Below, piece after piece: positions 12,781 through 51,127 of a stretch of 64,000 nucleotides of DNA (position 1 is the first letter of the stretch; the number at the start of each line of letters is the position of its first letter). Both the position numbers and the translations under genes were made by a program. Source of the DNA: Saccostrea cucullata (taxonomy: Eukaryota); the NCBI RefSeq assembly GCF_032062105.1, contig NW_026931074.1, forward strand, positions 345,587 through 409,586. Direction: 5' to 3'. The notes beneath the pieces are model-generated. The model saw only the letters and a program-made list of their open reading frames with translations, was not told the DNA's origin and made no database searches.

Positions 12781-14110
12781 CTGTCTGTCGGTCTGTCGGT
12801 CGGTCTGTCGGTCCACTTAGTTTCCGTTCATTTTCTTCACAACCCTTGCACATACTGAAATGAAATTTGGTATACAGATATATCACATGAATATCTAGGT
12901 CAAGTTTTGTTTTGGGTACAATCACACCTTATTTGACAGAGTTATGCCCCTTGGACTTAGAAAAAATTTCAATTATTTGCAGTTTCCGTTCATTTTCTTC
13001 GCAACCGTTGCACACACTGAAATGAAATTTTGTATACTGATATATCACATGGATATCTAAGTCAAGTTCTGTTTTGGGTACGATAGCACCATTTTTGACA
13101 GAGTTATGCCCCTTGGACTTAGAAAAATTTCAATTATTTGCAGTTTCCGTTCATTTTCTTTGCAACAGTTGCACACATTGACATGAAATTTGGTATACAG
13201 ATTTATCAGATAAGTATCTAGGCCAAGTTCTGTTCTGGGTACGCATCATTTTTGACAGAGTTATGCCCCTTGGACTTAGAAAAATTTCAATTATTTGCAG
13301 TTTCCAGTCATTTTCTTCACAACCATTGCACACACTGAAATGAAATTTTGGATACAGATATATCACATGAATATTTAGGTCAAGTTCTGTTTTGTTTATG
13401 ATCCGCACCATTTTTGACAGAGTTATGCTCCTTGGACTTAGAAAAATTTCAATTACTTGCAGTTTCCATTCATTTTCTTCGCAATCGTTGCACATACTGA
13501 AATGAAATTTAGCGTACAGATTTATCAGAGGTATATCTAGACCAAGTTCTGTTCTGGGTACGATCGCACCATTTTTGACAGAGTTATGCCCCTTGGACTT
13601 AGAAAAATTTCAATTATTTGCAGTTTCCAGTCATTTTCTTCACAACCATTGCACACACTGAAATGAAATTTTGGATACAGATATATCACATGAATATTTA
13701 GGTCAAGTTCTGTTTTGTTTATGATCCGCACCATTTTTGACAGAGTTATGCCCCTTGGACTTAGAAAAATTTCAATTACTTGCAGTTTCCATTCATTTTC
13801 TTCGCAATCGTTGCACATACTGAAATGAAATTTAGCGTACAGATTTATCAGAGGTATATCTAGACCAAGTTCTGTTCTGGGTACGATCGCACCATTTTTG
13901 ACAGAGTTATGCCCCTTGGACTTAGAAAAATTCCAATTATTTGCAGTTTTCCTTCATTTTCTTTGTAGAGGTTGCACATACTGAGATGAAATTTGGTATA
14001 CAGATTTATCAGATAAATATCTAGATCAAGTTCTGTTTTGGGTACAATCGCACCATTTTTGATAGAGTTATGCCCTTTTGGATTTAGAAAAATTCCAATT
14101 TGGGGGGAGG
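12781..14110. repeat. Satellite array of about 8 units of about 160 bp, with a 322-bp higher-order repeat; preceded by a (GTCT/GTCG)n microsatellite at 12781-12815
   Basis: Unit cagtttccgttcattttcttc..ttgcacatactgaaatgaaattt.gtatacagat.tatca...tatctag.caagttctgttttgggtac...caccatttttgacagagttatgccccttggacttagaaaaatttcaattatttg recurs at about 12820, 12980, 13141, 13299, 13460, 13621, 13782 and 13942. 13299-13620 and 13621-13940 are near-identical. The minus-strand ORFs here are repeat artefacts. Confidence 0.85.
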
Positions 14111-14341
14111 GGGGCATAAGTGTTTTACAAACATCTCTCGTCTTTTATTATATGTTTCAAGTCTACTTTGATAAAATGTGTGCTGTTCCTAGAATCCGGG
14201 ATTTTTTCGTACTTGATGTATATTGTGAATTTATGTGGATTAAGGACATGAGGAAACACTTTCATAAAGATGTGAAATTGCACTGAAATTAAATGACATT
14301 TTGATAATTATTTTGATTATAAGATATAGACTGTTAAATTA

Positions 14342-14562
14342 CTGTAAACCAGCTTTTATTTGCGACGACTTTATTTCGCGATTTACCACGGATAAACTAG
14401 TTTGCAACGATTTATTTTCATGATCAAGCCTTTTTGGATCGGTTTTGTTAATAGACACATATACACTTTAAGGACCGGTTCACGGCGAGAAATATTCGTG
14501 ATGACGTGCCTCTCGCGAACTTCGCGAAAATTTCTCGCATGCGAATAAAAGTTGGTTTACAG
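14342..14562. mobile_element. Stowaway/Tc1-mariner-like MITE (221 bp) with about 25-bp TIRs and TA TSD
   Basis: TIR ctgtaaaccagcttttatttgcga (14342-) matches the reverse complement of tcgcatgcgaataaaagttggtttacag (-14562). TA at 14340-41 and 14563-64. Interior is CpG-rich (cgcgaacttcgcgaaaatttctcgc). Confidence 0.55.
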
Positions 14563-15715
14563 TATATGTTATTTGTTTGATTCACGTAAATGAGTTTGGC
14601 ACAACTACCGGTACCGATTCTGTTTATTGTGGAAGTGATGGCATTATAGTAAAATGTCAGAACTCTGTAAAATTCTTCAGACAGCTTCAGACTGTTCTTT
14701 CAATGACTGTTATGGTTTATTCACAGATTTTATAGGTATAAATATTATATATATATATATATATGCATCATATTATGAAATATTAATGTCTGTATTGGAC
14801 AGTTTTTCAGTCCAGGAAGAAAGTCACAGTTTTGCTATATTATAACACTTATAGGTTGTTCTCTAGAATGTAACACTAATTTTTTTTTTAGGGGTGAGAG
14901 TTTCTTTATAGAGAGGAGAGATATTTCTTTATTCTTTATTTGACTGTGATGTATTCATTATCATTATTTATGTAAAGGAGGTATATTTATTTACAAGTTC
15001 AAATAAACACTTTCTACCAGAATGTTTTATTTCTTACTTGAAGCAACTCGTATAGCTTTAACATGATCATTTTATATGCAAACTTACATGCAACAAAGTT
15101 GCAACATCTCTACAGTATCAAATGTCAGCTTAGGAATTTACAAAACATTTAAATCATATGGTGATTAGAAGTGTATGTTCTAGATGCAGCATCTAGCTAC
15201 ACTAGTTTGGTCAAGGTAGACTTCAATACTTGGGCATGCTAGATGGCTCTTAGAATCAAAAGCAAGAAAGATAATCTGTGTCCACCTTTGGGCTTATTAG
15301 GCAAGCTAGAAATTTAAAAAATTTTGAAAATCACTTTCTAGATATAATGGGATTTCTTGAAGAGAAAATAACAGTGATCAACTGCAGCATCTAGGAGCAG
15401 GTCTGCATTTTATATTCTCGAAATGTCTAAAGTTTTCCAGGCTTTTTTTTATTTTTAGTATTTTGATATTTTATGTTTTCCTAACATGTAAAATGTCAAA
15501 ATCGTTTTTTTTTAAAAAAAAAAAAAAAAGCCCCATATACATAAGATATTTCAGACTAATTTTAAAATAAAAATAAATTTCCCACTCTAAGCAATTCACA
15601 TAAATTATTCACATTCTCCCAAATCCTTAAGCCAGGGTCACACCTTTCAAATAAACATTAATGTTTGCTATTTCTCATTCAGAAGCAATCGACAATAGTT
15701 TTTTTCATCCTAACT

Positions 15716-16395
15716 GTATAAAACTAGAGGTACTGTGAGCGATGAGCTCACTAAATGATACCCCCCGCCTCGCATATGGTTATAACTGGTGAAAAAGTCC
15801 AAGTTTTCCTGTGGCCGGGAAACCCAAAATATGTGTCGGATCAAAAAGTAAAATAGGAGGTGCACAATGGCAATATGTAATAAAGATTCTGTGAAAGTTT
15901 CATCAAATTTCATTCAGTGGTATGAGAGGAGTTGCGGATAAGAGATGGGTACCCCAAAGCGTAACAGACGGACGGACGGACGGACCCACGAAATGCAGGT
16001 TATGTGATTGACAAATTTATGTGACTTTTTCCAAATTTATGTGACTTTTTCCAAAAAAATTATGTGGCGCAAAACATGATACATGGGGTAAGGGAGGTAA
16101 ATCTCAAAACCTTTTGACGGACGTCCATATACGGACAATATTGTCCGTATTTTTTTATGTGACACTTCTTTAGAGTGATTTTTAAGTCACATAACACTCA
16201 TTTCTGCTAAAAAAAATCAAATTTGTATGTGACAGTCACATAAAACAAAAGAGTCACATAAATCTTAAATGGGCACAAAAACTGTCACTTAACCATTATT
16301 TCGTGAGAACGGACGGACGGACAGACGGACGGACAGACGGACGGACGGACGGAAATCCCGATCACTATATACCCTCCCGCTTTTCAAGCGGGGGG
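15716..16395 (-). mobile_element. SINE-like element, (GTCC)n-microsatellite family, copy in reverse orientation, interrupted by a nested MITE
   Basis: 15716-15986 carries tail through microsatellite (..cctctagtt tail as aactagagg; gggaggcggggggtatc as gataccccccgcctc; cggacggacgg). 16306-16395 carries the remaining microsatellite plus the hairpin head (cccgcttttcaagcggggggtata). The two halves are separated by the insertion at 15987-16305. Confidence 0.6.
15987..16305. mobile_element. Nested MITE (about 319 bp) inserted into the (CGGA)n tract of the SINE-like copy
   Basis: Terminal inverted repeats cacgaaat..ggttatgtgattgac and gtcacttaaccattatttcgtg. Internal palindromes (gacggacgtccatatacggacaatattgtccgtat) and repeated tatgtgac motifs. 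Its flanks rejoin as a continuous (cgga)n microsatellite. Confidence 0.45.
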
Positions 16396-16737
16396 TATAA
16401 ATATGATGAAATTCTGACAGAACTGAGGAAATTCCAGAAAATGTCCTACTTCTGAACGCAACAACTTCTAGTTGCTTTCATGTAAGCTTTGAATCCAAAT
16501 TAGTGCTGGTTTTAAAGCAAGCACCATTTTAAGTTCTCAACTACAAACTATCATAATTTTACTGCAGTGATCGATCTGATTTTTACATCAATACCGGGCC
16601 AGATTTGGACGTTACCCTGCCTTGTCCTTTCTGACCCGTGTGTAGGTTGGGTTTAGAATGGAGGGACATTGGCTAAACCTTGGCACAAAGCTAGAAAAAG
16701 GTCTAAACATGCGTTATAGGTCCTTGATTTAGGGTCA

Positions 16738-17139
16738 TTATACCCCCCGCCTGAAAAGCGGGAGGGTATATAGTAATCGGTATGTCCGTCCGTCTGTACG
16801 TCCGTCCGTCCGTCCGTCCGTCTGTTACGCTTTTTCTCTTATCCGCAACTCCTCTTATACTACTGAGTGAAATTTAATGAAACTTTCACAGAATCTTTAT
16901 TACATATTGCCATTGTGCACCTCCTATTTTACTTTTTTATTCGACACGTATTTTAGGTTTCCCAGAGCAAAACATGGACATTGCCATTTTTTGTTTACCT
17001 ATGACGTCACATAATAGAAGCTTCTGGATAACATTTCATAGGACGAGTTATTACCCTAAAACTATATAAAGCAACACATCGACATTATGGGAGGCGGGGG
17101 TATCATTTAGTGAGCTCATTGCTCACAGTACCTCTAGTT
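16738..17139 (+). mobile_element. SINE-like element, (GTCC)n-microsatellite family, full copy in forward orientation
   Basis: Head ataccccccgcctgaaaagcgggagggtatatagtaatcg, then (gtcc/gtct)n, then ttacgctttttctcttatccgcaactcct...attgccattgtgcacctcctatttt body, and tail gggaggcgggggtatcatttagtgagctcattgctcacagtacctctagtt. Head-to-head with the copy at 15716-16395, forming an about 1.4-kb palindrome. Confidence 0.6.
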
Positions 17140-17569
17140 GAGATACTTTCTCTTCAGAAAATAAAGAGCACAAGCTTGCCTATCTGAGATTTTTTAATCA
17201 TAAAATGCATCTGATACTAGTTTATACAAGCTAATTCAGAGAATCTGTGTCCCCCGCTTAGGGAATTCGTAAACGCATTTCGGGGGGGAGAGGGGATCGA
17301 GTCGGATCCCCCTGACTGGATTATTATGCCATTATTGTAGAAGTATTAAATGTATACATGTATACTGAAACAAATGAAATATGCCAGTATGGATATAAAG
17401 ATTTGATTGCTTATTCTTTATTATGTGTATAGAAGATCCTTTTTATATGGAATATTTATCACACTGTAATGATGATTTTATGAGTTTGTGCAAGCCAGAC
17501 CTCATAAATTTTTCATTTCATATGCTATCATTTATTAAAAAAAAAAGTATTTCGAAAAAAAAAGAAAAT

Positions 17570-17650
17570 GGTTCGTCCGGGATTTGAATCCGGCACCTCT
17601 CACATGTGAAGCGAGAGACATACCACTAGACCACAGAGCTACTTGCCGCA
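17570..17650 (-). pseudogene. tRNA-like retro-fragment or pseudogene (canonical D-loop through 3' CCA, then a T-run); anticodon loop reads CAC (Val-like)
   Basis: Minus strand reads ...GTAGCTCTGTGGTCTAGTGGTATGTCTCTCGCTTCACATGTGAGAGGTGCCGGATTCAAATCCCGGACGAACCA followed by TTTTCTTTTTTTTT. TGGTCTAGTGG D-loop, 7-bp anticodon stem with TTCACAT loop, and GGATTCAAATCC T-arm are recognisable. The 5' acceptor strand does not pair with the 3' end and CCA is genomically encoded. Confidence 0.4.
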
Positions 17651-17861: not shown

Positions 17862-18830
17862 CCAGTCAAAGCGTTCCCAATTAAAACCGTCCCGGTCAAA
17901 GCGTTGCCTGATTTTGGTCAAAGCGTACCATGATTTTGGTCAAAATGTCCCCAGATTTTGGTCAAAGCGCCCCCTGACATATTTTATAGAAATATGATAC
18001 TACAAAACCGCCCCCCGATTTTGGTCAAAGCGTCCCTTGATTTTGGTCAAAGCGCCCCCTGACATATTTTGATAGGAAAACATAGTTTCTAAACCGCCCC
18101 CTGATTTTGGTCAAAGCGTCCCTTGATTTTGGTCAAAGCGCCCCCTGACATATTTTATAGAAATATGATACTACGAAACCGCCCCCTGATTTTGGTCAAA
18201 GCGTCCCTTGATTTTGGTCAAAGCGCCCCCTGATTTTGGTCAAAGCGCCCCCTGACATATTTTGATAGGAAAACATAGTTTCTAAACCGCCCCCTGATTT
18301 TGGTCAAAGCGTCCCTTGATTTTGACCAAAGCGCCCCCAGATTTTGGTCAAAGCGCCCCCTGACATATTTTGACATATTTTTATAGGAAAAATAGTTTCT
18401 AAACCGCCCCCTGATTTTGGTCAAAGCGTCCCTTGATTTTGGTCAAAGCGCCCCCTGATTTTGGTCAAAGCGCCCCCTGACATATTTTGATAGTTTCTAA
18501 ACCCCCCCCAACTGATTTTGGTCAAAGCGTCTCTTGATTTTTGGTCAAAGCGCCCCCTGACATATTTTGATAGGAAAACGTAGTTTCTAAACCACCCCCT
18601 GTATGATTTTGGTCAAAGCGCCCCCACTCAAATTTGTTGTGTGAAAAAATGATGTTATTAAATTGTCCACAAAGCGCCCACTCGTTTTGGTCAAAGAGCC
18701 CCAGACATACTTTGTTTGAAAAAAAAAAATTATGTATTCAATCGCCCCCGAAATATTGGTCAAAGCGTCCCGTGATTTCGGTCTAATCGTCCCCTAATTT
18801 CGACCAAACCGTTCCCTAATATACCGGTAA
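17862..18830 (+). repeat. Left terminal satellite array of the foldback-like element (22-bp units, gattttggtcaaagcgcccc.t)
   Basis: About 40 tandem units with periodic tgacatattttataggaaaacatagtttctaaaccgcccc spacers. ORF 18218-18424 is an artefact of this array. Confidence 0.85.
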
Positions 18831-20956
18831 TTTCTAGTTTTAAACATTATGGAATGGAATGTAATATGTTGAAAAAGAATTTGAAATTTGAACTTGACGA
18901 TCGAAGTTTTCTATTAGGGAAATGCGTAAAAAAAACTTCTCCATCGTTGCACACATACATATGTAAGACTGTATATTTGCATAATTTGGATTTCAATTAT
19001 TATTACATACGGCCAAAGGATGTATTCGCTTCGACAAAAGAACTGACCTATAAGAGAGACAAATTTGAATTTCATACCTAAAATTACTTTATTACAACTT
19101 TACAATAAACCTCCAAAGTTGGTTGAAACTCAAATTTGTCCGTTTAAGCGTTGATTTTTGCATGAATTTTGGTCTAGAAGTCCTTCAGGGCAGGCCTGCC
19201 CCTAAATAAAATTGTGATATTTTGATAGGTTATGATGTAAGAAATGATTTAAGATAGGATTTTTTTAGGGGCACCCCTGCCCTAGGGTCGAAATTCACAA
19301 AAAACCTACAAAATCTAAGGAAACCAGATTTTGAAAATCTGATTCAAATTTATACCGATAATTCTTATAGACGGACTACCTCAGTTGATATATGAGTTGG
19401 TTTTACATCGTGAAGTGCTTCTTTTTAAAGTCGCTGGTTTAAAACTAGATATGTCCAAGACCCGAATCATAGACAAGAAAGAAATAACCACGGAAACCAT
19501 CCATGAAGATCATGTAATTTGATTCTTGATACAGATTGTGCAACCATCATAACAATTTCTACAATACTAATCATTTTAACAATTTCTACAATACTTATCT
19601 GAGGAGGAAGAACTGGAAAAAAATTATTTGCAGCTCTGGGGCGTATTGTGTGGTATGTTGTATAAATGTAAATTGACGATCTTTTCAATAGTTTGATAAA
19701 CATGCATTTGTAATAAATTCGGAATTTCCTTTATCCATATTTTCTTAAAATTCATTTATTTAATCAGATATGTAAAAATTTACTAATTCTGATTTTGTGG
19801 CCCTGGTTCATAATATCCCACCTCAGAGTGTGTATAGCGCACGTGCCAATCTTCTCACTTGTCATGTACCTAATTATGTAATACCACATAATATTACGCA
19901 CAGGTATACAGGAAGATCGATCATTAAGTTTCAATGAGATTTGAAGTCTGTGTATACACAGTAAACATGAATTCAGACATTCATATCATTGTAAACAAAT
20001 TTTAACAATAATGAATTTTTATAAAACAATAATATATAGCGAGAATATTTGGAACTTTCGATGGATTATTGCAGCCCGGAGGACCGGGCTGCTCTATACA
20101 TATAAGTTTAAGTGTTGGTGTATGGGGATTGGGATGGGAGTAGTTATTTAGAATTGAAGGTTTTCTCAACATTTAAAAGATTGTTAATCAAAATGTTCTT
20201 TACGTTTAAAAATTACGAGATATATAATATATTTACTTCCATAAAGTGAATCTGTAAAAAAATATATATGTTTTTCATATTTAATATATAAAGTTGCTTA
20301 TCATTTACTATCGAAAAAACGACAGGTCCCTTTTTTTAGAACATCGAATTTTACTTCTCGGATAAAAACGTACTCTGCACAGTTCGTATTTTATATTCTA
20401 AAATTGAAAATTAATACATTTTTAAATATAGGTGATGCGTGTGTTTAACTTCAATTTATATTTTATACAGCCAACATTTACTTGAGGAATTGATCAAGTT
20501 TAAAATGGTATCTTTTTTTTATTTACTTTTATCCGACTACAAGTTTTCAAAATATTCGCGACTATCGTCTCCATCAATTAGACGCATGCCTTTTCACACA
20601 CATCAAAGCGGTTTGATGATCAAGACTCATTTTCATTTTTTACTTTATATATTTCCCGGGCGACAATTGATGGTAACGTCAATGTTTTCTTGTTTTTTCT
20701 TTAAAGTCGCTTAACCCGAAACAGGCACATATCTTACACAATATCAAAAGTACGTCATTACATAGACAATATATAAAAATAAATTATAAGATTGATTTAA
20801 TGGTTTATTACAACTATCCTTACATGAAAAAGCAAATCAAAAACCTTATTGACAAACAGTAGTTCCTGACGGAAGTTAAGATCTGTTGTGAAGTCAATTT
20901 TGAATAAAATAAGTTTATCGGATATATCTAATAATGAAGATAATTCAAACCCGATT

Positions 20957-21315
20957 ATTATACCCCCCGCTTGAAAAGCGGGAGGGTATATAGTAATCGT
21001 TAATTCCGTCCGTCTGTACGTCTGTCCGTCCGTCCGTCTGTCCGTCCGTCCTTCCGTCTGTCCGTCTGTCCGTCTGTTACGCTTTGGGGTACCCATCTCT
21101 TATCCGCAACTCCTCTCATACCACTGAATGAAATTTGATGCAACTTTCACAGAATCTTTATTACATATTGCCATTGTGCACCTCCTATTTTATTTTTTGA
21201 TCTGACAAATATTTTGGGTTTCCTGGCCATCGCAAAACATGGACTTTGCCATTATAATCATATGGGAGGCGGGGGGTATCATTTAGTGAGCTCATTGCTC
21301 ACAGTACCTCTAGTT
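20957..21315 (+). mobile_element. SINE-like element, (GTCC)n-microsatellite family, full copy inside the foldback-element core
   Basis: Head ataccccccgcttgaaaagcgggagggtatatagtaatcg, then (gtcc/gtct)n at 21001-21075, then ttacgctttggggtacccatctcttatccgcaactcc... and tail ...gggaggcggggggtatcatttagtgagctcattgctcacagtacctctagtt followed by a T-run. Confidence 0.65.
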
Positions 21316-23299
21316 TTTTTTTCTCTATTAGTAGAAGCCTTAGTCATAATACATCTTTTCAAAATTAAGAAATTAATTGAATATAATCCAAAGCAATTTT
21401 TTTTATCAATATGCATATTTAAAGAATAAAGGAAAATCAGATATTTTAAATGATTTTTTTAAAGGAGCTAGAATATTGTCCGTGTACAGGTAATATATAT
21501 GCACTTTGTTGTGAAAAAAATGCTCGGGTTTGTTCTTCATGAGATAAACATGTAAGCGATAAATTTAATTTTTCGAAGGTGATTTCACGCTATATCAACA
21601 ATGATCAACAAAGGATTATTTTTTGTGTGACCTAACAAAAATTATTTTTTTAACTTTTGAATTTTGATATCTTTTAAAGGAAAAAGACTTTGGGGATATA
21701 ATTTGACAAAAGTTGAAACAATTTATGGACAATTATTTTTCAAGAAGAAAAACGAATATATATTTTTAGCGATTAGAATCGGACCAAGCGGCTTTAATTG
21801 AAATAAATGAATGAAAAATAGATTATTTTCATCACTTTTCTTAAATCATCGAGTTCTTTGCCTAGACGAAGAAATTGTGAAACGTTGAAATGTTAATTAA
21901 GATGAAAAATAACGTGTTTTATATTTTGAAAATTAGTAACTTTTTAAAAAGTTTATTATTTTCATGACAGCCCAGATCGCTTATACATGTTGCATACATG
22001 GTATAAACACATCATGCTTTCAGTAAATTTTACACTACAGACTATTCTTTGACGTTACTTATCTGAAAAAATGATAAAATAAAAACCCCATACCGAATTA
22101 TTAGGTATGGGTTTCAAGTTTGTTTGTTTGTTTTTTTTTTTCGAGATGTGTGGAACATCAGGTGCATTTATGTGTTATTTGTTTTTTCTTTAGAATTTGA
22201 TTTACCTTATGAACCTTTTCTCTAAATGAATGAATAGGAATGATTTTGAACATACAGGTATAAACGATATTTTGTACACATGTCATGTACATACTGATTT
22301 TCTTACTCATTTCGTTTATTTCCTTCTCTGCTTGATGTATACATGGATGTGTAGGAATAGTTTAATTTATACCATTTCTCTTACCTGTAAAATTTTATAT
22401 TTATTTTTATAACTTTGTTGCATATAATAAGGTAATATAACCTGAAAATCAGAAATAATAATTATTTCATTGATGTTTAAAAAGTTTAACCAGTTTAATT
22501 AACATTGAATATTTCAGATTCTGATTCAAATCAACTACGGAAACCCGTGAATCGCACAGTTTTTACTGCATGTGTGCTCCTGAGTCATTGTAAATTCTAT
22601 AAATAAATACGAAATTAATAATATTTTTATTATAAAAAAGAAAGAAAGAAAAACATGATGTCCATGGTCTTCACACAGCAGTTCCTATTGTCAAGTAAGA
22701 GTTATCTCCTTAAATGCTGTATACTCTTATATCAAACACTAAATGAATAAAATATATATTTAATTTTTTTTTTATTAATTTTTTGTCAAATGTTACCCAA
22801 ATAATTTTGAAAAGTAACATTTCAAATTGTAAAGAGAAATTAGAGAAACAACGCCGCATGCGTTTGATTTTTCGTCAGGCATGCTCCACGCCGTATGCAA
22901 ACTTTAAAACGATTAAAAACTCCATTCTGTGCTTTTAACATTATTTTTGTTTCCTAAAACATTAACTACAGGGTATGAAAAAGTAATATACCTAACAAAA
23001 AACAAATTAATTCCATTAATAACACGGCAGGCGTATACATTTTCTCGGCAGGCGCATTTTCCCCTGGCAGGCGTCGGCAGGCGTATTTTATGTGCTTGAT
23101 TAGAAATTTTTCCTTGATCGTATCCACCGTGTTTATACTTTATAGATCCTTATATTCATACACCTGTTGTATTTAAAAGAAAGTTACAGATTATGAAAAT
23201 GTGTATGTGAGCATCAACATTTATTTTTAAAATTAGCTATCATATTTTGACTCTGGGACGTCAGGAAAAAATATACATATAACAGCAAATTCCGTTTAA

Positions 23300-24390
23300 A
23301 AATCGATTTGGATGCGCTTTGAAAATTTGGGGTGGTATTCAAATATAAATTTTCTGTAAGGAGCGCTATATGTTACCAAACTTCAAACGTTGTTTTTCTA
23401 TTAAAAAATATGTCAGGGGGCGCTTTGACCAATATTTGGGGGCGCTTTGACCAAACTTCAAACGTTGTTTTTCTATTAAAAAATATATATTTTGACTAAT
23501 ATTTGGGGGCGCTTTGACCAAAATTTGGGGACGCATTGATCAATATTTGGGGGCATTTTGGAAACTTCGCTTTCTATAAAAATATGTCAGGGGGCGCTTT
23601 GACCAATATTTGGGGGCGCTTTGACCAAACTTCAAACGTTGTTTTTCTATTAAAAATATGTCAGGGGGCGCTTTGACCAAAATTTGGGGACGCATTGACC
23701 AATATTTGGGGGCATTTTGGAAACTTCGCTTTCTATAAAAATATGTCAGGGGGCGCTTTGACCAAAATTTGGGGGCGCTTTGACCAAAATTTGGGGGCGC
23801 TTTGACCAAACTTCAAACGTTGTTTTTCTATTAAAAATATGTCAGGGGGCGCTTTGACAAAATTTGGGGACGCATTGACCAATATTTGGGGGCATTTTGG
23901 AAACTTCGCTTTCTATAAAAATATGTCAGGGGGCGCTTTGACCAATATTTGGGGGCGCTTTGACCAAAATTTGGGGGCGCTTTAACCAAACCTCAAACGT
24001 TTTCTATTAAAAAATATGTCAGGGGGCGCTTTGACCAAATTTTGGGGACGCATTGACCAATATTTGGGGGCAATTCAGAAACTTCGTTTTCTATAAAAAT
24101 ATGTCAGGGGGCGCTTTGACCAAAATCAGGGGGCGCTTTGACCAATACTTGGGGGCGCTTTGACCAATATTTGGGGGCGCTTTGGAAACTTCGTTTTTCT
24201 ATAAAAATATGTCAGGGGACGCTTTGACCAAAATCAAGGGACGCTTTGACCAAAATCAGGGGGCGGTTTCGTAGTATCATATTTCTATAAAATATGTCAG
24301 GGGGCGCTTTGACCAAAATCAGGGGACATTTTGACCAAAATCATGGTACGCTTTGACCGGGACGGTTTTAATTGGGAACGCTTTGACTGG
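23300..24390 (-). repeat. Right terminal satellite array of the foldback-like element (same 22-bp unit, inverted)
   Basis: (agggggcgctttgaccaaaat)n with atatgtcag spacers, the reverse complement of the 17862-18830 array. ORF 23540-23809 is an artefact. Confidence 0.85.
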
Positions 24391-24522
24391 CTCCCATTTC
24401 ATTCAGTGGTATGAGAGGAGTTGCGGATAAGAGATGGGTACCCCAAAGCGTAACAGACGGACGGACGGAATTAACGATTACTATATACCCTCCCGCTTTT
24501 CAAGCGTGGGGTATAATAAATA
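24391..24522 (-). mobile_element. Truncated SINE-like copy (head-proximal 130 bp) abutting the right end of the foldback-like element
   Basis: catttcattcagtggtatgagaggagttgcggataagagatgggtaccccaaagcgtaacagacggacggacgg...ataccctcccgcttttcaagcgtggggtata. The body is cut exactly at the foldback terminus (gactgg|ctcccatttcattc). Confidence 0.5.
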
Positions 24523-24579: not shown

Positions 24580-25067
24580 TTTGGCATAAAATTACATTGC
24601 AAAAGCTCAAAATCCTCTTGAAATATCGCCGAGAAGGGATAGTGTTATACACAGACAGAATGTATAAATTTACGACCTTGAACTTTGACCTTTTGACCTC
24701 AAAATCAATAGGGGTCTTCCTTAGGCCACAGGAAATTGTTATGTAAAATTTCATTGCAAAAGCTCAAAGGGTTCTCGAGATATCGCGCGGAAACGAAAGT
24801 GTTATAACAGACTGACTTTGCGAATTTATGACCTTGACCTTTGACCTTTTGACCCCAAAATCAATAGGGTTTATCTTTAGTCCATTGGGAGTTGCTATGC
24901 CAAATTTCATTGCGAAAGCTCAAAGGGTTCTCGAGATATCGTGTGGAAACGAAAGCGTTACAGACAGACAGAATGATGGACGGACGGACAGAGGGACAGA
25001 CGGACGGACGGACGGACAGATCCAAATTAATGTCCCCCACTTTTCAAGCGGGGGACAATAATATATA
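24580..25067 (-). mobile_element. Related element sharing the microsatellite and hairpin head (24955-25067) but with a body of 3 tandem units of about 130 bp (24580-24955)
   Basis: Units contain tttcattgc.aaagctcaaagggttctcgagatatcg...gaaacgaaag.gtta.acagac and ..tttatgaccttgacctttgaccttttgacc.caaaatcaatagggt. They end in gttacagacagacag..(ggac)n..cccccacttttcaagcgggggacaata. Confidence 0.45.
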
Positions 25068-25710
25068 AATTTGGTAGATAGGCAAGCTTGTGCTCTTTGT
25101 TTTCAGTACAAAATGTGTAAAATCGATGAAAATTTGTATAAAAATGAGAAAATTCGAAACTTGGCCTATTTTCTAACCTCACTGTGACCTCTGTGTATTC
25201 CAAATCTTAGAACCGATCGATGCTCATTTTGTGGCAAGAATGACGACAGGTTTTTATGGATAAATTATTGCATCATTCTGAAAGACACCCAAAATCAGGG
25301 GGCCAAAAACAGGTCTTAGCCTATCTTGTCCTTTAAATTTCAAATTCCTATGACATTTCACTTATTAATGACCTTGGTTCAAGGCCACTGTAAAAAAAAA
25401 AAAGATTCAATGTAGTTAAATATAGCATATTTGATCAAGGATAAACCTATAGATATTGAAAAAATGAAAACAACTTGATACATCAGGTACTTAAAGTACA
25501 GTGTATAATTTGCTATAAGAGGTTGGGGTGGAAGAGAAGCTACAAAGTACACAAGCTGGTGGCTGTGGTAAATTGATGATCCACACAGTGAAAATGTTAG
25601 ATACCTATATATGGGCATCTTTGGGCTTTCACACTTTTAAATTTATCATGCCTCTTGCATAAAACAACACACAGTTTTGTTAAAAAGAAATGATCGACCT
25701 ATTGTGATAA

Positions 25711-26110
25711 AACTAGAGGTACTGTGAGCAATGAGCTCACTAAATGATACCCCCCGCCTCCCATAATGTCCATGTGTTGCTATATATTGTTTTACGGTAA
25801 TGTGTAAAGAGGAATAACTCGTCCTATCAAATGTTATCCAGAAGCTTCTATACATATGACGTCATAGGTAAAGATATAATGGCAATGTCCATGTTTTTGC
25901 TATGGGAAACCTAAAATACGTGTGGAATAAAAAAGTAAAATAGGAGGTGCACAATGGCAATATATAATAAAGATTCTGTGAAAGTTTCATTAAATTTCAC
26001 TCAGTAGTATAAGAGGAGTTGCGGATAAGAGATAAAGCGTAACAGACGGACGGACGGACGGAAATCCCGATTACTATATACCCCCACTTTTCAAGCGGGG
26101 GGTATAATAA
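25711..26110 (-). mobile_element. SINE-like element, (GTCC)n-microsatellite family, reverse-orientation copy
   Basis: aactagaggtactgtgagcaatgagctcactaaatgataccccccgcctcccata...ggaggtgcacaatggcaatat...ggagttgcggataagagataaagcgtaacagacggacggacggacggaaatcccgattactatatacccccacttttcaagcggggggtataataaa. Small internal deletion relative to other copies. Confidence 0.6.
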
Positions 26111-26239
26111 AGTGATATCTATCGTTATTATCTCAACTTATGTAAATTTGAACTGTCACAAGGAGCTTGTTCTTTTTGTCCCCTGCTTTCACGAAAGTGA
26201 GAAGACATTAATTCTCATTTATGTCTGTCCATCTGTCAG

Positions 26240-28383: not shown

Positions 28384-29286
28384 TCAGTCATCTGAGTTAA
28401 TATAATTCCTTACAGTTTTCTTTTCAACACAATTCAGGTCTCGAGAACTGTCACTTGGTTGAAATCTTCCTCCTTCTCTCTGGTACCATGGGTTGTAAGG
28501 GCGTCCCCTCCTCCCTGGTCCTGCATTGGTACATGTACTTGGGGTTCTCACATTTTTAAAGATACTGTTGAATCCGTCACCCGCGCTTGGAGGTTTGGCA
28601 GTATCCGCAGCTGCTATTTCATTATTCCATTCCCCATCTTCAATCTCATACACAGGCCTATAGCCTGGTTTTGTCTCCTTTGGCAATTCTTTTTCTCCAA
28701 TCCGCAAGCACTCTTCTTGCATCGCATTAAGAACTGCTTCTTGAAGTGTCCTGGGTCTGGTCCGTTTCACTGCAAGTCGAAAATCCCCAGATTGTCCACA
28801 CTTATCTAAGAAGGACTGTATAGCATTTTCTTCAACTAAATCTGGATTTCCTGGATAGGCCCTTCGGTACAAATCTTCGATGGCCTGTCCTAAATCTCGC
28901 AGGGACTCACCCGGTAGTCGTCTCCTTAATTTTACATCCGCAATATATTTTTCTTTCATTGCAGAATGTCCAAATCTTTGATTCATTTTATCCTTTAGTT
29001 GCTCATAATCACTCTGTACAGTAAGGGGCATTCCATAGGCATAGCTCTCGGCCTGTCCTCGCAAGGTGCTAAGTAGAACTCTGCGAGAAGGTCCCCATGA
29101 GTTTAATTCTGAGATGTTTTCGAAATATTGTAGAAACTCATCCCAAACATCATTATTGGCCCCTGAGAAGGTCCTCCTTACTGGATATTCATTGGTTCGT
29201 TGACCAGCATTTGGTGTCGTAAGACTGTTTGTAGGTGTCCCGTCAGTAGTAGGAAATTCAAAATTGTACCCAAGTCCCTGAGGAGA
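28384..29286 (-). CDS. Retrotransposon gag-like protein, about 300 codons open with no pol
   Basis: Hand-translating the frame of ORF 28384-29064 upstream to the TAG at 29287-29289 gives ...SPQGLGYNFEFPTTDGTPTNSLTTPNAGQRTNEYPVRRTFSGANNDVWDEFLQYFENISELNSWGPSRRVLLSTLRGQAESYAYGMPLTVQSDYEQLKDKMNQRFGHSAMKEKYIADVKLRRRLPGESLRDLGQAIEDLYRRAYPGNPDLVEENAIQSFLDKCGQSGDFRLAVKRTRPRTLQEAVLNAMQEECLRIG... This fits the retrotransposon_gag pattern (W..F...F.......L.G.A..W; R.F..GL...I; PRTL.EA). It is followed directly by the PPT and LTR. Confidence 0.7.
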   Translation of the reverse strand, partial: SPQGLGYNFEFPTTDGTPTNSLTTPNAGQRTNEYPVRRTFSGANNDVWDEFLQYFENISELNSWGPSRRVLLSTLRGQAESYAYGMPLTVQSDYEQLKDKMNQRFGHSAMKEKYIADVKLRRRLPGESLRDLGQAIEDLYRRAYPGNPDLVEENAIQSFLDKCGQSGDFRLAVKRTRPRTLQEAVLNAMQEECLRIGEKELPKETKPGYRPVYEIEDGEWNNEIAAADTAKPPSAGDGFNSIFKNVRTPSTCTNAGPGRRGRPYNPWYQREGGRFQPSDSSRDLNCVEKKTVRNYINSDD

Positions 29287-33750: not shown

Positions 33751-33870
33751 TCATCGCCGTACAATGCTTCCTGTTGGTCGCATGGTCTCTACTCGGTTCT
33801 GAAGGTCATCAATTCGGACATCCTTCAGGTGTATCAAATGTTCCATTCTTTTTATCTTTGCTTGTAAGAT
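33751..33870 (-). CDS. SPEF1: SPEF1-like gene A exon 8 (terminal): ILQAKIKRMEHLIHLKDVRIDDLQNRVETMRPTGSIVRR*
   Basis: Acceptor ttttag (plus 33871-33876 rc). Phase 0. Stop TGA at 33753-33751. 27/39 identical to the gene B terminal exon. Confidence 0.65.
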   Translation of the reverse strand: MLQAKIKRMEHLIHLKDVRIDDLQNRVETMRPTGSIVRR

Positions 33871-34146
33871 CTAAAATGTTAAGATTTCATTTAAATGACA
33901 GCATTCAATATAATCCCAAGATTCTTATATCAGCCAAAGAGCCAAAATTAGTTTAGGGGATTGGATTTTGTCAACTGTTGAAATGCAGTAAAAGTTTTAA
34001 GCTTTAAAATTATATTTCTTACTAAAAATTTACATGGAAAATGAATATCAGTTGTGTATGATGTCAAACATTTAATAAACTTCAGGATCTGTCAGTGCAA
34101 TTAGCAGAGACATTCAAACAAAACAACAATTAATATATTATCATTC

Positions 34147-34315
34147 ACAAGAGGCCCATGGGCCACATTGCTCACCTGAGCAAATCTGCTAGGAAAAACC
34201 ACAAATCAGCTCAGTATTGAAAACTTTACCAGGGTGGGGGTTTGAATTTTATACTACTTGAGGATGCCTCTGTATTAATATAGCATATAACTTTACTTTT
34301 CTTGAGCCTTTGGCT
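34147..34315. mobile_element. Short MITE-like member (about 170 bp) of the gctcacctgagc-terminus family, in the last intron of gene A
   Basis: caagaggcccatgggccacattgctcacctgagc.....gagcctttggctcaggtgagc. Inverted termini. The ggcccatgggcc palindrome is shared with 52205 and 6070. Confidence 0.5.
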
Positions 34316-34372
34316 CAGGTGAGCTAAAAAACAAAGAGATTTCAAAACATGTTTGATTTGATTAGAACTGAC

Positions 34373-34502
34373 CTGAATGGTTTCTTCTTTGGTCAAACTT
34401 TCCTGAACTTTTTCCTCAAATAGTATCCTGGGGACATTATCTCCCTCTAGTTTGTTAGATCCGAGGGTTTTCTGTCGAGGGGGGTCAGGATAATAATCAG
34501 GC
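34373..34502 (-). CDS. SPEF1: SPEF1-like gene A exon 7 (130 nt): (R)PDYYPDPPRQKTLGSNKLEGDNVPRILFEEKVQESLTKEETIQ
   Basis: Acceptor cattacag, donor gtcagt. Phase 1 to 0. Identical length to gene B exon 59914-60043 and gene C exon 9615-9744. Motif VPR.LFE.KVQE.L.K.ETIQ is shared. Confidence 0.6.
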
Positions 34503-35779
34503 CTGTAATGAAACCCAAATATCTATAATGTAAACCTCAGATTAGAGGGGGATAAGAAATTAAATGAAACCTTTAATAATATATTAATTATCTATACATG
34601 TAATTTCAATTGATTCTTGCTTGCATGTTCACTTGTATATTTCCCTCTTGACTTATTATTCAATGGTTATAAAAAAGGTTTATCAGATATATATATATAA
34701 AGTGATATAAAATATTAAGGATACTCCGACACACAACAAATTGACAAATTAAATTAATAAAGAATATTCAGACACATAACTATAAAAAGACAAATTAATA
34801 TACAATATAAAGGTTAGTTATTTATTGTTAGGAGATGTACACTTTATATTGCACAATGCTTTCACCCATCCTCCATTGTATCCTGATTTATATACACATG
34901 TATTAAAACAGGGTTCATTTTGCCTTATCAAATTTGCAAACAAGTCCACCCTTCATCATGTATTAAAAGAACAATACATGCAACTCTTTCTGTACAGTTT
35001 TAGCCCCCCCCCATCACGAAACTGATGACTAGGGTGAAATTGGCAAAAAATGAAAAGGGGGCAAAATTTCCTTGTTTTTATTTTGATTGAATGAACAATA
35101 CTTGTTATTGTTATAGAAACCCAAGGCTCTGATAAATCACAACAATTTAAAATCCAGATGCCATGACACCCGACACCAATGTCAGTGTTGAAGCAGTTTG
35201 CAATGATTTAGAAAAAGACTTCAAAACCAGACTTACAACTTTATTTACACATAAATTTTTAAGCTATTAAAATTTAATTTTGCTGGTTTTCTTATGTGAT
35301 CATGAAATGATCGAGCTCAATGTTCAAAAGGGAGCATCATTCAATATCCATGTGTGTGTGATAATAAAGATAAATGAAATTAAAATAGTTTTGTACCTAC
35401 ACGTATCAAGGTTTCTATTATGGTGAAATGGTTAAAAATTGGTAAATATTGTTTTCTTATGTCATGCCTGTTTAGAAATGTATTTTAAAATAGAATCACT
35501 GAATTGGGAATTTAACAGTTACCGTTAATTTACTCTGTTTTTACATCACACTTCATCTCATTAGAGAAATTTAAATTCAAAGATTAAATCTGTATTCCAT
35601 TAAAAAATTTCAAACACAAAGAATACTTCTTTTCTATATATGACAGCAGGGAAATTAAAAAATATATATATAAATAAAACAATACAGGAAGTTGTTGCAG
35701 ATTATAGGATAGGTGAAAAAAGAGTTCAAAACAGACACTGTAGATGAATGAAGATAAAGTGGTTCTCCCTGTCTGATAC

Positions 35780-35836
35780 CTGGCCAATGATTCTAATGTT
35801 ATCACTTCCTTGCTTTCAGCATGCAGCATTACATTT
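35780..35836 (-). CDS. SPEF1: SPEF1-like gene A exon 6 (57 nt): (G)NVMLHAESKEVITLESLA(R)
   Basis: Acceptor gattttcag, donor gtatcag. Same length and phase as gene B exon 59192-59248 (YIKRRADSKEVVTLDKLL). Confidence 0.55.
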
Positions 35837-36843
35837 CTGAAAATCACCAAACTCTATCAAAATTGTTGCCTTTTTAGTTTACAGAGATAATTTGTATACT
35901 AATGTCTGTTGTTATACCTAGACAAGTTATAGAATGTCTAATACATGTACTATGCTTTGTAAGAAGTGCATGCATGTGAAATACTAATGAAGAAATGTTC
36001 AAGAACAATGTATAACATAGTTTTGATGAACTTGATTAAATGTATCAATGACCTCCAATATTTTTTACACTGTGATTTAAATATATTCTTTAAAGACTGA
36101 CTGTAAAATATGGAAATTCTGATGAAAGTATTGTAAAACTGACAAGCAGATGATGACTTTTATTATTTCTAAGCTTTCCATGTTTCTTCCATGCACACAG
36201 CATATAAACATTTTAATACACAAAGCCATTGAATTAGATTTTTACTTTCAGTTAAATACTTTCAGTTGATCATTAGTAGACATGCTCTTTACTTAACATG
36301 ATCGCAGTGCATAAGACCACTGAGTGTACTGGGAGGTTTCATACAGTCCATTGTCATAATAGGACATCGTATTAAACCTAATAAAATAACAAACAATGTC
36401 AGTTATTCTGCATTTGCTTTACTAACTTGAAAACAAGAGGCCAATTGGCCATACAATTACAAATGGAAATAAACTATTCTCATTGTCTTATTAAAATCTC
36501 TCACATGCACTAATAATTTTTCCATGAAACTTCTATTTATGGTGTCAAATAAAGTTATTAGTAAAAAACATTTTAGATCTATAAATTTTTGTTTTTGTAC
36601 TTTGAGAATATTTAAGGAATGAAGCTAATTTCAACTTATATTATACGATATAACATAACTTGGGGCAGTTTACGATTTATAAACCACGTAAGGTCACAGA
36701 GCTACTTGAAGGAACATTTTCCTCAAAAGAGTTTTTAAATTTAACACAGTGTTTAAAGCAACAAACATAAACTGAACACATACCGGTATATATATTGAGT
36801 TAAAGTGAACACATAAACAATATTTGTCAAAAAATGTACCTAC

Positions 36844-36898
36844 CCTCCTCCTTTTGTGGGGTTCTGAGATTTCTTCTCTACTCCCCGACCAGGAACAG
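36844..36898 (-). CDS. SPEF1: SPEF1-like gene A exon 5 (55 nt): (A)VPGRGVEKKSQNPTKGG(G), low-complexity linker
   Basis: Acceptor tttatag, donor gtaggtac. Counterpart of gene B exon 58187-58238 (SPGRSRKGVSPTRGGGG). Phases chain correctly to the exons on both sides. Confidence 0.5.
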
Positions 36899-37069
36899 CT
36901 ATAAAGAAACAATTCTGTATGTAATTAAAGGTTAGTGAAAGATTAGAGATTTTACTATTGATAAACAACTGAAATATCTAAAGCAAAGAGCCTTAAGAGG
37001 CCCCTTAAAATTTTATTCATCAAACCTATTCTTTGTAAACATGCAGTAAAGAATTTCTAAGACACTGAC

Positions 37070-37287
37070 CCATATACTGATCAGCCTCGGGTTTGTCACT
37101 CTCGGGCCGACGTCCACCTTTGGCTCGGTGTGTCGACTGTAGAGGTTGCTTGGTCAGTTCCCATTCGGCTCGCTCGAGCTTGCGTCTGAGCATCATCAGG
37201 AACTTCTCAATCACGCCAGGTTTGGCCATGATAATATCTCCTATGACATCATCACCCAGGGTAAAATTTAGTTTGCTCAAAACTTTT
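37070..37287 (-). CDS. SPEF1: SPEF1-like gene A exon 4 (218 nt): (R)KVLSKLNFTLGDDVIGDIIMAKPGVIEKFLMMLRRKLERAEWELTKQPLQSTHRAKGGRRPESDKPEADQYM(G); C-terminal half of the CH-like domain
   Basis: Acceptor ttttatccag, donor gtcagtg. Matches SPEF1 family ..RKVLSKLNF.V.DDV...I..C.PGV.E.VL..LR..L.E... as remembered. ORF track 37026-37280(-) covers most of it. Confidence 0.65.
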
Positions 37288-39300
37288 CTGGATAAAATTT
37301 TAAAAATGAAACTTTTAATTAGAAAATATTAAACTGTATTCAAAATGTTTTCTGATATATCATAATCCTGAAGAAATAGTTCTAATATATAAAATTTAAG
37401 CACCATTTGCTCAAATGTATCGATCTCTTTTAAAACCCTTTTCATTGCAATATACTCACTGGAATTCAGTAACATTTATACTGCCTAGAGCTTAAACATA
37501 TATAAATAGTCATAGTCCTACACTATTTACAGTTCACATACACGACATACAGTGTACATTTATATTGAGAGGAGGGTGTCTAAATACATGTAAATGTAGC
37601 TAACTAAATATTTGTTATTACAGTAAAAGAAAGGACAACTTGATTATGAACTATACATATTTAATTTAGGACTATGCTAAGTATCATATGCCCATAAGAA
37701 ATATTTATGGTTTTGGTTAAAACCAAAGTAAAGATCAGAAAGCTTTGGATAAGATGAAAATTGGACTATCATTTAGGACATTTTATCAGAACAAAGTTAC
37801 TATGTTTTATTTTATATGGTTTTGTAAAATTTAATACACTCTCTATCTCTTTAATAAATGAGCTGACTGCTCAAGCAAACAAAAAGGGGGAAGGGTGTTG
37901 AAAGTTCAAGGTCACTTCTAAAATAGTTGGATTGCTCTCAAGAATCTGTATCCAGTCCAGTTCAAATCAGATCCTTAGTTGATTTAATAAGTAAGAACAA
38001 TTTCTAAAACGAGGTAAATTTATACAAACAAGTTGAAGAAACAAGAATATCAGCAGTCTTGTTTTAAGACATCACTTCATAAGTTCTATGGTTGATACAA
38101 TGACCTTGTCAGCAAATACAATATATCATTGAGTCAAATGCTGACTGATGTTTTTCATACTAATTGTTTGTCCATTATTTACACACTGAATTGACAACAA
38201 TTTTTTCTGTTATTTCTCGATCATGACTGGTCAGCAGGGGATGCTCACTCCTCAATGGCACCAGGTTCCACCTCTGATGTTTCAGAGGTCTGTGTTTGCT
38301 CTGCTCCTATTTTTTATTGTTTAATGGACTTTTGAGCTTGAATACTGTTTGTTATCTCCATATATTTCATCCTTGAAACTACTCACATAGATTGCTTCAC
38401 CTTATGTAGCAAAGCTCAGACAGGTCTTAACTTATAAATCTAATAGTAATATGATTATCTTAGTAATACTGTCAATGAGTTAAACCCATACTCTGTCACT
38501 GAAAGCTTAATTCATATCACTCATGCATTTTAATGTGATTGTAGAAAATTGATATGTGATTTGAAAATATTGTTTTAAAAAAATCAGTGCATATAAGTAA
38601 AAAGAAAGTGATATAGTCTGTACATTCAATTCATAAAGGCAAGATAGGAAAATCAGAAAGAACAATTCTAGACTTTTTATCAATTAAAAAAAAAAATTGT
38701 AACATTTAAGCTAATCAAGCAGCATGCATGCTCTTGTACAGTTCAGAGTTAGAGTAACGAGGAGAACACTGGGGGAGGGAATGCCGCCAGGTATGTAGCA
38801 CTATTTATAGATCAGAGCTGTGTAGGAGGCAAGAAAAGCACTACTTTTTATATAGTTGGGATCCCGAGGTTTCATTCCTTAAAACTATTGCCTGTATCTT
38901 TTTATCTTCAGTATTCTGTGCCATTTACCTATACAGTATAACTTGGTTATAAAGAACTTGCTTATATGGAAATCTCATTGAAATGGAAACTTTTATGAAT
39001 CCTTATTTAATTTTACTCATATGAGCTTCATTTAAATAGTTTTGGTTAAATAAGAAATTAAAATTTGAAGTGCCTGTGATATTATCTATTCAGTGCATTC
39101 TATTCAATTTAGAAATGATGTGACTTTTATTAAATGCCCGAACTTATTTCATAGAATACCAGTATATTTGGGTGATCTAACACAAAACTGGTTGTTAGAT
39201 GGACAATCACAAGAATATAAAATATTAAATAATTGGCACCCAATTAGGGTATTTTATAAAATCTGACAGATTATATGGGACCAGACACCAGTACAGTTAC

Positions 39301-39412
39301 CTGTTGAGAACTTTCCAGTTGAGCAATTTTTTGTCTGTAGAATTGGCAGTGGAGTAGTTGTGTAGGTCCACCAGAGTAGGAAACTTATTGTGAATAATCT
39401 CGGCTACCAAGA
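39301..39412 (-). CDS. SPEF1: SPEF1-like gene A exon 3, variant b (112 nt): (V)LVAEIIHNKFPTLVDLHNYSTANSTDKKLLNWKVLN(R)
   Basis: Acceptor gttttcag, donor gtaactg. Same length and phase as variant a. Closest to gene B variant b (HKFPHLVQKHNYSTANSTSKKMENW). Confidence 0.6.
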
Positions 39413-39898
39413 CTGAAAACAACCAAATATTACAGACTAATTCCAGAGCTTTAGAGAGAAAGAAAAGATTATAGAAGAGTACAGAGATGCTCAAATATTT
39501 ATACCACCTGATCATTGCTTTCAAATTATAAGTTGATAAATTCAGGAATCTATCTCTGGATTTGAACATCTCTGTAGAGAAACTCACTAGCACAGCAGAC
39601 ACACACAAGAACTGTACTGTACACTGCATTGTTCCATACATTCATCATCTGGATCAATCACATCCTATCATTTGTATCACTTTTTGGAATTAATTATTTA
39701 CAGATGAGTTATATACGTAGAAAGTTAAAGATTGATTATTTCTTGTTTGGAAAATCCAATGAAAGAAAGCCTATAATATTTATTAATATTATAAGTACAA
39801 GTAGTCAAGGAATTGGATTATGTCAAGATGATGAATGCCTGAATGAGACGTTGATATGAGTCACATCAATGTAGTTTGTGGAGACATGTGCCCTGTAC

Positions 39899-40010
39899 CT
39901 GCTGAGGACCTTCCAGTTATCCCTCTTAATACCTAGCGCACTCCCAGGAGAGTAGTTGTGCATTTGTATCAACTGTGGTTTAAAATGGCGGATAATCTCA
40001 GCTACCAACA
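39899..40010 (-). CDS. SPEF1: SPEF1-like gene A exon 3, variant a (112 nt): (V)LVAEIIRHFKPQLIQMHNYSPGSALGIKRDNWKVLS(R)
   Basis: Acceptor actactgtag, donor gtacaggg. Core of the CH-like domain (VLVAE...FP.LV..HNY.PANS...KL.NW..LNR in SPEF1). Closest to gene B variant a (VQNFFPQLVQMHNYTP). Confidence 0.6.
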
Positions 40011-40198
40011 CTACAGTAGTAACATCAACCATTCACATCTCACATTTACCATTCATATTTCAACCATCAGTAAGCATGGTAATCAAACAATATTTCAATT
40101 CAACCAAAACACTAAACATGGAAAAGCATTAGACTACTGTAAGTCGTTTTAATTCTACGGTGTTAAAATATCACGATATCTCAAAAAGTACCAATTGC

Positions 40199-40345
40199 TA
40201 TGGCTTTAATTTCACGCTGCCAGAAATTAATTCAACATTTCGTTTAAGTATTTAAATGATTTAAAAACAAATAATAACATTAACGAAGGGGTTAATTTCG
40301 CGGAAAAATTATAAATCGCGAACAGAGCGAAATTAAAACCATCGT
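40199..40345. mobile_element. Possible small MITE (about 145 bp), CpG-containing, related to the 14342-14562 family
   Basis: ggctttaatttcacgctg...cagagcgaaattaaaacc form imperfect inverted termini. The interior tttcgcggaaaaattataaatcgcgaac resembles ctcgcgaacttcgcgaaaatttctcgc in the 14.4-kb MITE. Confidence 0.25.
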
Positions 40346-41482: not shown

Positions 41483-42111
41483 ATGGCACGCCAAATTCAC
41501 AAAAATGAGATAAACCTAGTTTCACAATTGATAAACTAGGTTTATCGACTGTAAACTATAGTTTACAAAACGTAAACTATACTTAACGATTTGTTAAGTA
41601 TAGTTTTCATCTGTAAAACTATATTTAACGGTTGTTAACTATAGTTTACGAATGCTAATCTAAGTTTATCTGTCTGTAATAAGCGTTAACAACAGATTTT
41701 GTTGATAAACATAGATTCACATTTGTAAACTATAGTTTACAATCGAAAACAATCGTAAACTATAGTTATAGTTAAGAGTTGTTAATATAGTTTCACAAAT
41801 CGTGAAACTATATTTATCAGATCGTTAACTATAGTTAACGGTTTGTATAAACTATAGTTTACAAATCGTGAAGCTGTATTTATCAGATAATCTATGTTTT
41901 GCAATTGAAAATGATTGTTTTCGGTGTTAAGTATAGTTTACGGTTGTGAAACATAGATTATTATTATGGTTTACAGATGTAAAATATAGATTAACGTTGT
42001 TAACTATAGTTTACAGTCTGTAAACTATAGTTTACAACCGATAAACGGTTAAACCTAGTTTATCGACTGTGAAACTATGTTTAGCTCATTTTCGTGAATT
42101 TGGCGTGCCAT
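41483..42111. mobile_element. MITE (about 630 bp) with about 28-bp TIRs and an interior made of palindromic gtaaactatagtttac-type units
   Basis: TIR atggcacgccaaattcacaaaaatgag (41483-) matches the reverse complement of ctcattttcgtgaatttggcgtgccat (-42111). Possible TSD gatattc on both sides. Interior has more than 15 copies of (c)gtaaactatagtttac(aa) and gttaactatagtt variants, each itself a palindrome. Lies in intron 1 of gene A. Confidence 0.6.

Positions 42112-51122: not shown

Positions 51123-51127
<5 letters not shown>

Follow-up and report, generated by a model that had tools for sequence, protein, structure and literature searches.

Most foldback elements have been placed in the Mutator/Phantom or P superfamily. 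The FB element of Drosophila melanogaster reportedly combines arms of short tandem subrepeats with termini of degenerate repeats, unequal arms and a variable or non-coding middle, and the TU elements of the sea urchin Strongylocentrotus purpuratus are said to possess an outer terminal inverted repeat (TIR) domain of ~15-bp tandem repeats around a variable middle. As a structural class, foldbacks carry long TIRs with terminal and tandem-repeat domains, unequal arms and a variable, non-coding middle; structurally complete copies are often very scarce, a transposase of the element's own is often lacking, and sea urchin foldbacks are listed among them (PMC4079207). Tetris, a non-autonomous element of Drosophila virilis, has TIRs of up to 1.7 kb composed of outer flanking, tandem-repeat and inner domains, its tandem repeat derives from part of the terminal domain, and three structurally complete copies and no transposase are described for it (PMC4079207). 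In Galileo, a foldback-like member of the P superfamily, the internal tandem repeats of the long TIRs carry extra binding sites for the transposase (THAP), as quoted in the same source (PMC4079207). Here, we describe a 6.5-kb intergenic unit of the oyster Saccostrea cucullata, located at 17862-24390 of a 64-kb stretch of DNA (assembly GCF_032062105.1, contig NW_026931074.1, positions 345,587 to 409,586 of the forward strand) that is referred to as the window and whose numbering is used throughout. The build of this unit is that of a known structural class, the non-autonomous foldback-type elements with long TIRs, and we interpret it, with a probability of roughly 0.55, as a single non-autonomous foldback-type DNA element or the relic of one.

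The unit is closed on both sides by perfect reverse complements of 42 bp, slightly longer than the 40 bp given in the initial annotation, in which 42 bases were nevertheless spelled out, and the complementarity ends exactly at both outer limits (Table 1). The terminus has the sequence CCAGTCAAAGCGTTCCCAATTAAAACCGTCCCGGTCAAAGCG; on the left side it reads CCAGTCAAAGCGTTCCC AATT AAAACCGTCCC..., and its outermost 32 bp form a diverged dimer of the 22-bp unit that makes up the arms, as judged from the unit map and from scoring against unit dimers. The arms are unequal both in length (~0.96 kb on the left, ~1.08 kb on the right) and in the copy number of the 22-mer. Searching for GGTCAAAGCGYCCC with at most one mismatch returned 43 matches, of which the 19 in 17916-18771 all lie on the + strand and the 24 in 23417-24358 all on the - strand; outside the two arms the 64-kb window contained none, and none was expected from 100 shuffles. 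A second pattern, TTGGTCAAAGCG, gave 42 matches versus 0.24 expected, with the same distribution. Motif search, Tandem Repeats Finder (TRF) and the unit map thus all bear out the original description of long inverted arms composed of 22-bp tandem repeats.

Superimposed on the base period of 22 bp, which TRF reports in both arms, are higher-order periods, which measure 85/117/171 bp on the left and 85/107/180/193 bp on the right; the unit map and TRF together assign repeats of 85/107/117 bp to the left arm and 85/180 bp to the right. The higher-order period of about 115 bp previously ascribed to both arms is therefore found only in part of the left arm. The linker between units also differs, TGATTT being typical of the left arm and AAATWT occurring in most of the right arm, and the GGTCAATGCGTCCCC unit variant is present in the right arm. 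Over their outer 200 bp, the arms are collinear and 97.8% identical, bar one extra 22-bp unit on the left, and the innermost ~200 bp of each arm consist of decayed units; over their full length, the arms align with 88% identity and 230 gapped columns. An inverted repeat/direct repeat (IR-DR) layout, in which the inner end of an arm would be a copy of the terminal sequence, was considered and rejected, as ordinary unit dimers match the terminal 34-mer with scores at least as good as those of the inner ends. Snap-back behaviour, proposed earlier as a check, was assessed by folding the joined outer 450 nt of each arm, which yielded 369 inter-arm pairs at -402 kcal/mol, compared with about -92 kcal/mol for shuffled sequences and -87 kcal/mol for the direct orientation. 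Single-stranded arms would accordingly be predicted, on this folding model, to snap back into a long stem.

Table 1. Coordinates of the foldback-type element, its junction and neighbouring features in the 64-kb window.
Feature	Position	Strand	Description and evidence
Left terminal inverted repeat	17862..17903	+	42 bp, exact reverse complement of 24349-24390; diverged dimer of 22-bp unit
Left arm	17862..18820	+	~25 units of GGTCAAAGCG-core 22-mer, all on + strand; unit map, TRF, motif search
Middle segment	18821..23314	.	~4.5 kb, non-coding; open reading frames, Pfam, self-BLAST, composition
Nested full-length pearl/HINE-type element	20954..21317	-	BLAST pieces 77-100% identical to 15720-15985, 16737-17139, 25709-26111
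Right arm	23315..24390	-	~29 units of GGTCAAAGCG-core 22-mer, all on - strand; unit map, TRF, motif search
Right terminal inverted repeat	24349..24390	-	42 bp
Right junction	24391..24520	+	5-bp filler CTCCC, then 5'-truncated pearl/HINE-type copy 24396-24520; alignment with four copies, BLAST
Pearl/HINE-type copies	15720-15985, 16306-16400, 16737-17139 (-), 20954-21317 (-), 24396-24520, 24952-25062, 25709-26111		
SPEF1-like gene A	33754-42887	-	sperm flagellar protein 1, CH_2 domain; head-to-head with gene B
SPEF1-like gene B	45520-60605	+	sperm flagellar protein 1, CH_2 domain; head-to-head with gene A

The middle segment is AT-rich (GC = 30.5%) and contains neither an open reading frame (ORF) of >99 aa nor a Pfam match in six frames at E<=1, in agreement with the earlier statement that the core lacks a convincing ORF; the six-frame Pfam search also revealed none of the transposase remnants that had been suggested as worth looking for. 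According to self-BLAST, the segment is unique in the window except for the nested element (Table 1). This insertion, like the repeat at the right flank, had been taken for a short interspersed nuclear element (SINE), an identity that we reject for both in favor of a pearl/HINE-type family, whose members carry an (ACGG)n microsatellite together with a GC hairpin; in the nested copy, the microsatellite occupies 21005-21074 and the GC-rich hairpin lies near the 3' end. Pearl/HINE elements are defined by a left (L) flank, tandem core repeats, a tetranucleotide microsatellite and a right (R) flank with subterminal inverted repeats (PMC3879986), and the nested element matches the modular build of the pearl/DTC84/HINE elements of bivalves (PMC3879986, PMC7492417). 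The 6.5-kb unit that harbors it is clearly neither a pearl/HINE element nor a MITE.

The layout as a whole fits the structural definition of the foldback class (PMC4079207), so the Foldback architecture recognized at the outset stands. All 43 motif matches are strictly strand-polarised and confined to the arms, which speaks for this interpretation. The two ends coincide to the base in where they break off within the unit and carry no unique DNA with them, and the tips are perfect around diverged interiors; each of these features is easier to reconcile with a discrete element than with an inverted duplication of arbitrary extent. The terminus is built from the array's own unit, with which an arbitrary duplication breakpoint is not expected to coincide, and the combination of perfect tips with diverged interiors suggests either a constraint on the ends or independent growth of the inner arrays. 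By analogy with the TIRs of Galileo, the 22-bp unit is proposed to be a binding site, reiterated along the arms, for a transposase whose gene would lie elsewhere. An ancestral, shorter TIR may have come first, with the arms subsequently lengthened independently of each other by slippage or unequal exchange, so that they would agree at the tips and differ inside. A pearl/HINE element could then have landed in the middle segment, and a deletion or some HINE-associated event could have remodelled the right junction, erasing any target-site duplication (TSD).

Several observations weigh against this interpretation. No TSD was detected for k = 2-12 with boundaries shifted by <=6 bp, and at the same settings direct repeats flanking the element were lacking, both exact ones of >=4 bp and ones of >=7 bp with one mismatch; its outer flanks show no relationship to each other. 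The right terminus had been thought to truncate a SINE-like copy exactly at 24390/24391. However, homology of this pearl/HINE-type copy to the others begins at 24396, not 24391, and the ~183 bp missing from its 5' part are not present at the left flank, for which no match exists elsewhere in the window; the lack of a TSD, the 5-bp offset and the absent other half together mean that there is no insertion footprint. No transposase domain was identified in the middle segment or in the stop-to-stop ORFs of >=72 aa of the window. The 22-mer motif does not recur outside the two arms within the 64 kb, leaving a single visible copy, and it is absent from 30 kb of the syntenic locus in Saccostrea echinata, located via the SPEF1-like gene, a segment that ends at JAVQLB010000001.1 position 44,246,947, ~7 kb short of the orthologous position of the element, which is expected just below. 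Pattern scans of metagenome, prokaryotic-genome and viral contigs revealed no copy, the sole pattern match in these contig collections being a GC-rich bacterial contig that was judged to be a chance match. In addition, a word search of 5.8 billion protein clusters with an 89-aa ORF read through the array gave no match, the arms account for only ~30% of the 6.5-kb unit, and pearl/HINE elements and tandem arrays are crowded in the neighborhood, where rearrangement alone could yield odd structures. The proposal of a foldback-type transposon is thus upheld as far as the layout is concerned, but a TSD, a transposase and a second copy were all not found.

Further searches were likewise negative within their scope. 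Exact look-up of 11 ORFs of the window found none on record, the 9-mers GTCAAAGCG and CGCTTTGAC are absent from the supplementary files of the paper on the C. gigas satellitome, a literature search by motif sequence returned unrelated matches only, and Rfam yielded no matches in the window at the gathering threshold. The terminal bases, CCAGTC..., do not fit the signatures of hAT, Tc1 (TA-CAGT), piggyBac, CACTA or Kolobok, and since there is no TSD they allow no superfamily assignment; the foldback-type assignment is made by structure only and implies no superfamily membership. A satellite would be recognized by long arrays of one orientation at many or large loci, and only two ~1-kb arrays of the 22-mer, in opposite orientations, are seen in the window.

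Inverted minisatellite blocks could also have arisen by local rearrangement without any transposition, either through the inverted duplication of a 22-bp array (derived from a transposable element or formed de novo) or through the flipping of one of two direct arrays. We consider this origin, which corresponds to the pair of inverted satellite blocks already offered in the initial annotation, a serious but somewhat unlikely alternative. It is in line with the lack of a TSD and with the single locus seen, and in oyster genomes arrays and parts of Helitrons are reported to have built complex loci as they were inserted, deleted, tandemised and recombined (PMC11136912). A mechanically possible variant invokes recombination between the opposed pearl/HINE copies at 21061-21134 and 24396-24469: these copies, which bracket the right arm, are mutually inverted and 98.6% identical over 74 bp, so that an inversion of 21135-24395 could have taken place, and undoing it would bring the arrays into direct orientation, with one intact and one truncated HINE remaining. 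However, the right-flank HINE is 100% identical to 15907-15980 and no closer to the core copy, and nothing therefore points specifically to recombination between those two. Against rearrangement in general, the inverted repeat stops at the outermost unit on both sides without including unique flanking DNA, and perfect 42-bp tips around diverged interiors are the reverse of what simple decay of a duplicate would produce.

A one-ended element bearing an array may instead have inserted twice, independently and in opposite orientation, at sites 4.5 kb apart, in which case the core would be ordinary host intergenic DNA. In agreement with such a distinctly improbable history, the middle is unique and non-coding with CpG and GC values like those of the surrounding intergenic DNA, the variant that forms the inner array differs from arm to arm, and the region is a hotspot of array-carrying mobile elements. 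However, the inner arm ends fade through decayed units and have no common second terminus, the arms lack the conserved L/R flanks and the tetranucleotide microsatellite of bivalve array carriers (PMC3879986), and it would be a coincidence for a family not seen elsewhere to have landed twice within 5 kb, facing outward both times. Assemblies are also error-prone at inverted repeats and tandem arrays, and a chimeric or mis-joined inverted duplication introduced during long-read assembly could mimic the structure. This is highly improbable, as the arms, in view of their global identity, their gaps and their different higher-order repeats, are not copies of each other, an asymmetric unique segment of 4.5 kb separates them, and the flanks outside them share no similarity. 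A single non-autonomous foldback-type element is our preferred reading, and this element is probably a relic and dead.

The element lies ~9 kb beyond the 3' end (33754) of SPEF1-like gene A, which forms a head-to-head pair with gene B (Table 1); such a pair is also annotated in S. echinata. Gene A matches a Logan transcript with 95-100% nucleotide identity per exon, and its closest annotated relative is the S. echinata 'sperm flagellar protein 1-like' (84% overall), with Mytilus at 63%. Both genes contain two versions of exon 2 (39458-39300 and 40026-39898 in gene A, 50222-50335 and 53062-53178 in gene B), which look like mutually exclusive exons. Between 55.6 kb and ~31.3 kb of the window, collinearity with the 30-kb syntenic S. 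echinata locus is preserved, with aligned blocks that are 66-90% identical. An intron of gene B harbors a 43-bp minisatellite at 54867-55579 (~17 copies, 88% matches), and the orthologous place in S. echinata (segment positions 20-450) holds a homologous array with ~70% identity, indicating that this array is older than the split of the two species. A tandem duplication of 166/309 bp at 51375-52065 (2 copies, 89-94% matches), also within a gene B intron, adjoins an (ACGG)n-like stretch at ~51175-51204. In addition, 230 bp at 14340-14569 are 84% identical to S. echinata segment positions 20488-20714 in a non-syntenic location and in opposite relative orientation, presumably reflecting a shared interspersed repeat.

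The ratio of observed to expected CpG, calculated in 2-kb bins, is 0.5-1.3 over 14-32 kb (~0.8-1.3 at 14-26 kb and 0.5-0.8 at 26-32 kb) and ~0.5-1.3 also over 44-50 kb, and falls to 0.03-0.5 over 1-14, 32-40 and 50-56 kb. This mosaic, low in gene bodies and high in intergenic and divergent-promoter DNA, fits gene-body methylation, and it fits a location of the element in unmethylated intergenic DNA. CpG retention was considered as a sign of the youth of the element and rejected: the whole 14-32 kb block lies at 0.5-1.3, so that retention in the motif is uninformative on age. CpG depletion at 1-14 kb suggests a further gene there, for example around a 148-aa S/K/R-rich ORF at 1813-2259.

At least seven pearl/HINE-type copies with the (ACGG)n microsatellite and, towards the 3' end, a GC hairpin are present between 12.5 and 26.1 kb (Table 1), and two pearl/HINE-type elements contain tandem core repeats, of 162 bp x 8 at 12819-14100 and of 156 bp x 2.5 at 24588-24975. 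On the - strand, 28387-29286 is a stop-to-stop frame of 300 codons that resembles a retrotransposon gag, being 56-85% identical to unannotated proteins and to 'retrotransposon gag domain' proteins of Mytilus; Pfam assigned no family to the full frame or to the 226-aa ORF contained in it (28384-29064). Its matches, mostly to Mytilus, at first pointed to a mytilid host, a reading rejected on the evidence of gene A, which indicates a rock oyster near to but distinct from S. echinata. At 17569-17639 (- strand), 222 bp left of the element, ARAGORN calls a tRNA-Val(CAC)-like sequence that Rfam does not report at the gathering threshold. It may be the head of a SINE or a decayed tRNA gene, and the sequence around it is not repeated elsewhere in the window.

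In bivalves, the link between mobile elements and dispersed satellite-like arrays has been drawn almost entirely through Helentron-type elements (PMC7492417, PMC11136912). No description of a foldback element in a mollusc was found in the searchable literature, which excludes curated repeat libraries, and the papers that combine foldback with bivalve, mollusc, Mytilus or oyster only cite Tetris. If genuine, an oyster foldback family would constitute a second source of tandem arrays, as well as a source of hairpin-forming, rearrangement-prone DNA. It is doubtful, on present evidence, that the locus represents the first recognised foldback transposon family in molluscs, still or recently mobile in rock oysters, whose arms would be phased arrays of 22-bp (~two helical turns) transposase-binding sites and which would provide a second route, beside Helentron/HINE elements, for seeding short satellite arrays and inversions. 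Of practical value is the 42-bp terminus, which together with the 22-mer can serve as a query for a whole-genome survey.

Among described systems, the Helentron-associated pearl/DTC84/Cg_HINE elements are the known carriers of dispersed short tandem arrays in bivalves, and several of them surround the oyster element and one lies inside it. However, they bear one array of 150-170-bp monomers in fixed orientation, bounded by conserved L and R flanks and accompanied by a tetranucleotide microsatellite, whereas the oyster element has two inverted arrays of a 22-mer, no microsatellite, no L/R modules and inner ends that decay gradually. With FB, compared by architecture since no likeness in sequence is expected, it shares arms of subrepeats, termini of diverged units, unequal arms and a non-coding middle. 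FB differs in its 9-bp TSDs, none of which is seen in the oyster element, in arms that usually make up most of the element, compared with ~30% here, and in being multi-copy, in contrast to the one visible copy in the oyster. TU, like the oyster element, has an outer TIR domain of short tandem repeats and is a foldback family of a marine invertebrate, but it belongs to another phylum, has another repeat and is multi-copy with documented insertions. The likeness to Tetris lies in the non-autonomous build, the long TIRs, a repeat that is related to the terminus and the low number of copies, although the repeats of Tetris are ~220 bp in length instead of 22 bp, its TSDs measure 8-10 bp, and related kb-scale satellite arrays have been documented for it. 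Galileo differs in having autonomous copies with a P-like transposase and TSDs of 7 bp, neither of which is seen in the oyster element, but shares with it long TIRs with internal tandem repeats and provides the model for the mechanism proposed here.

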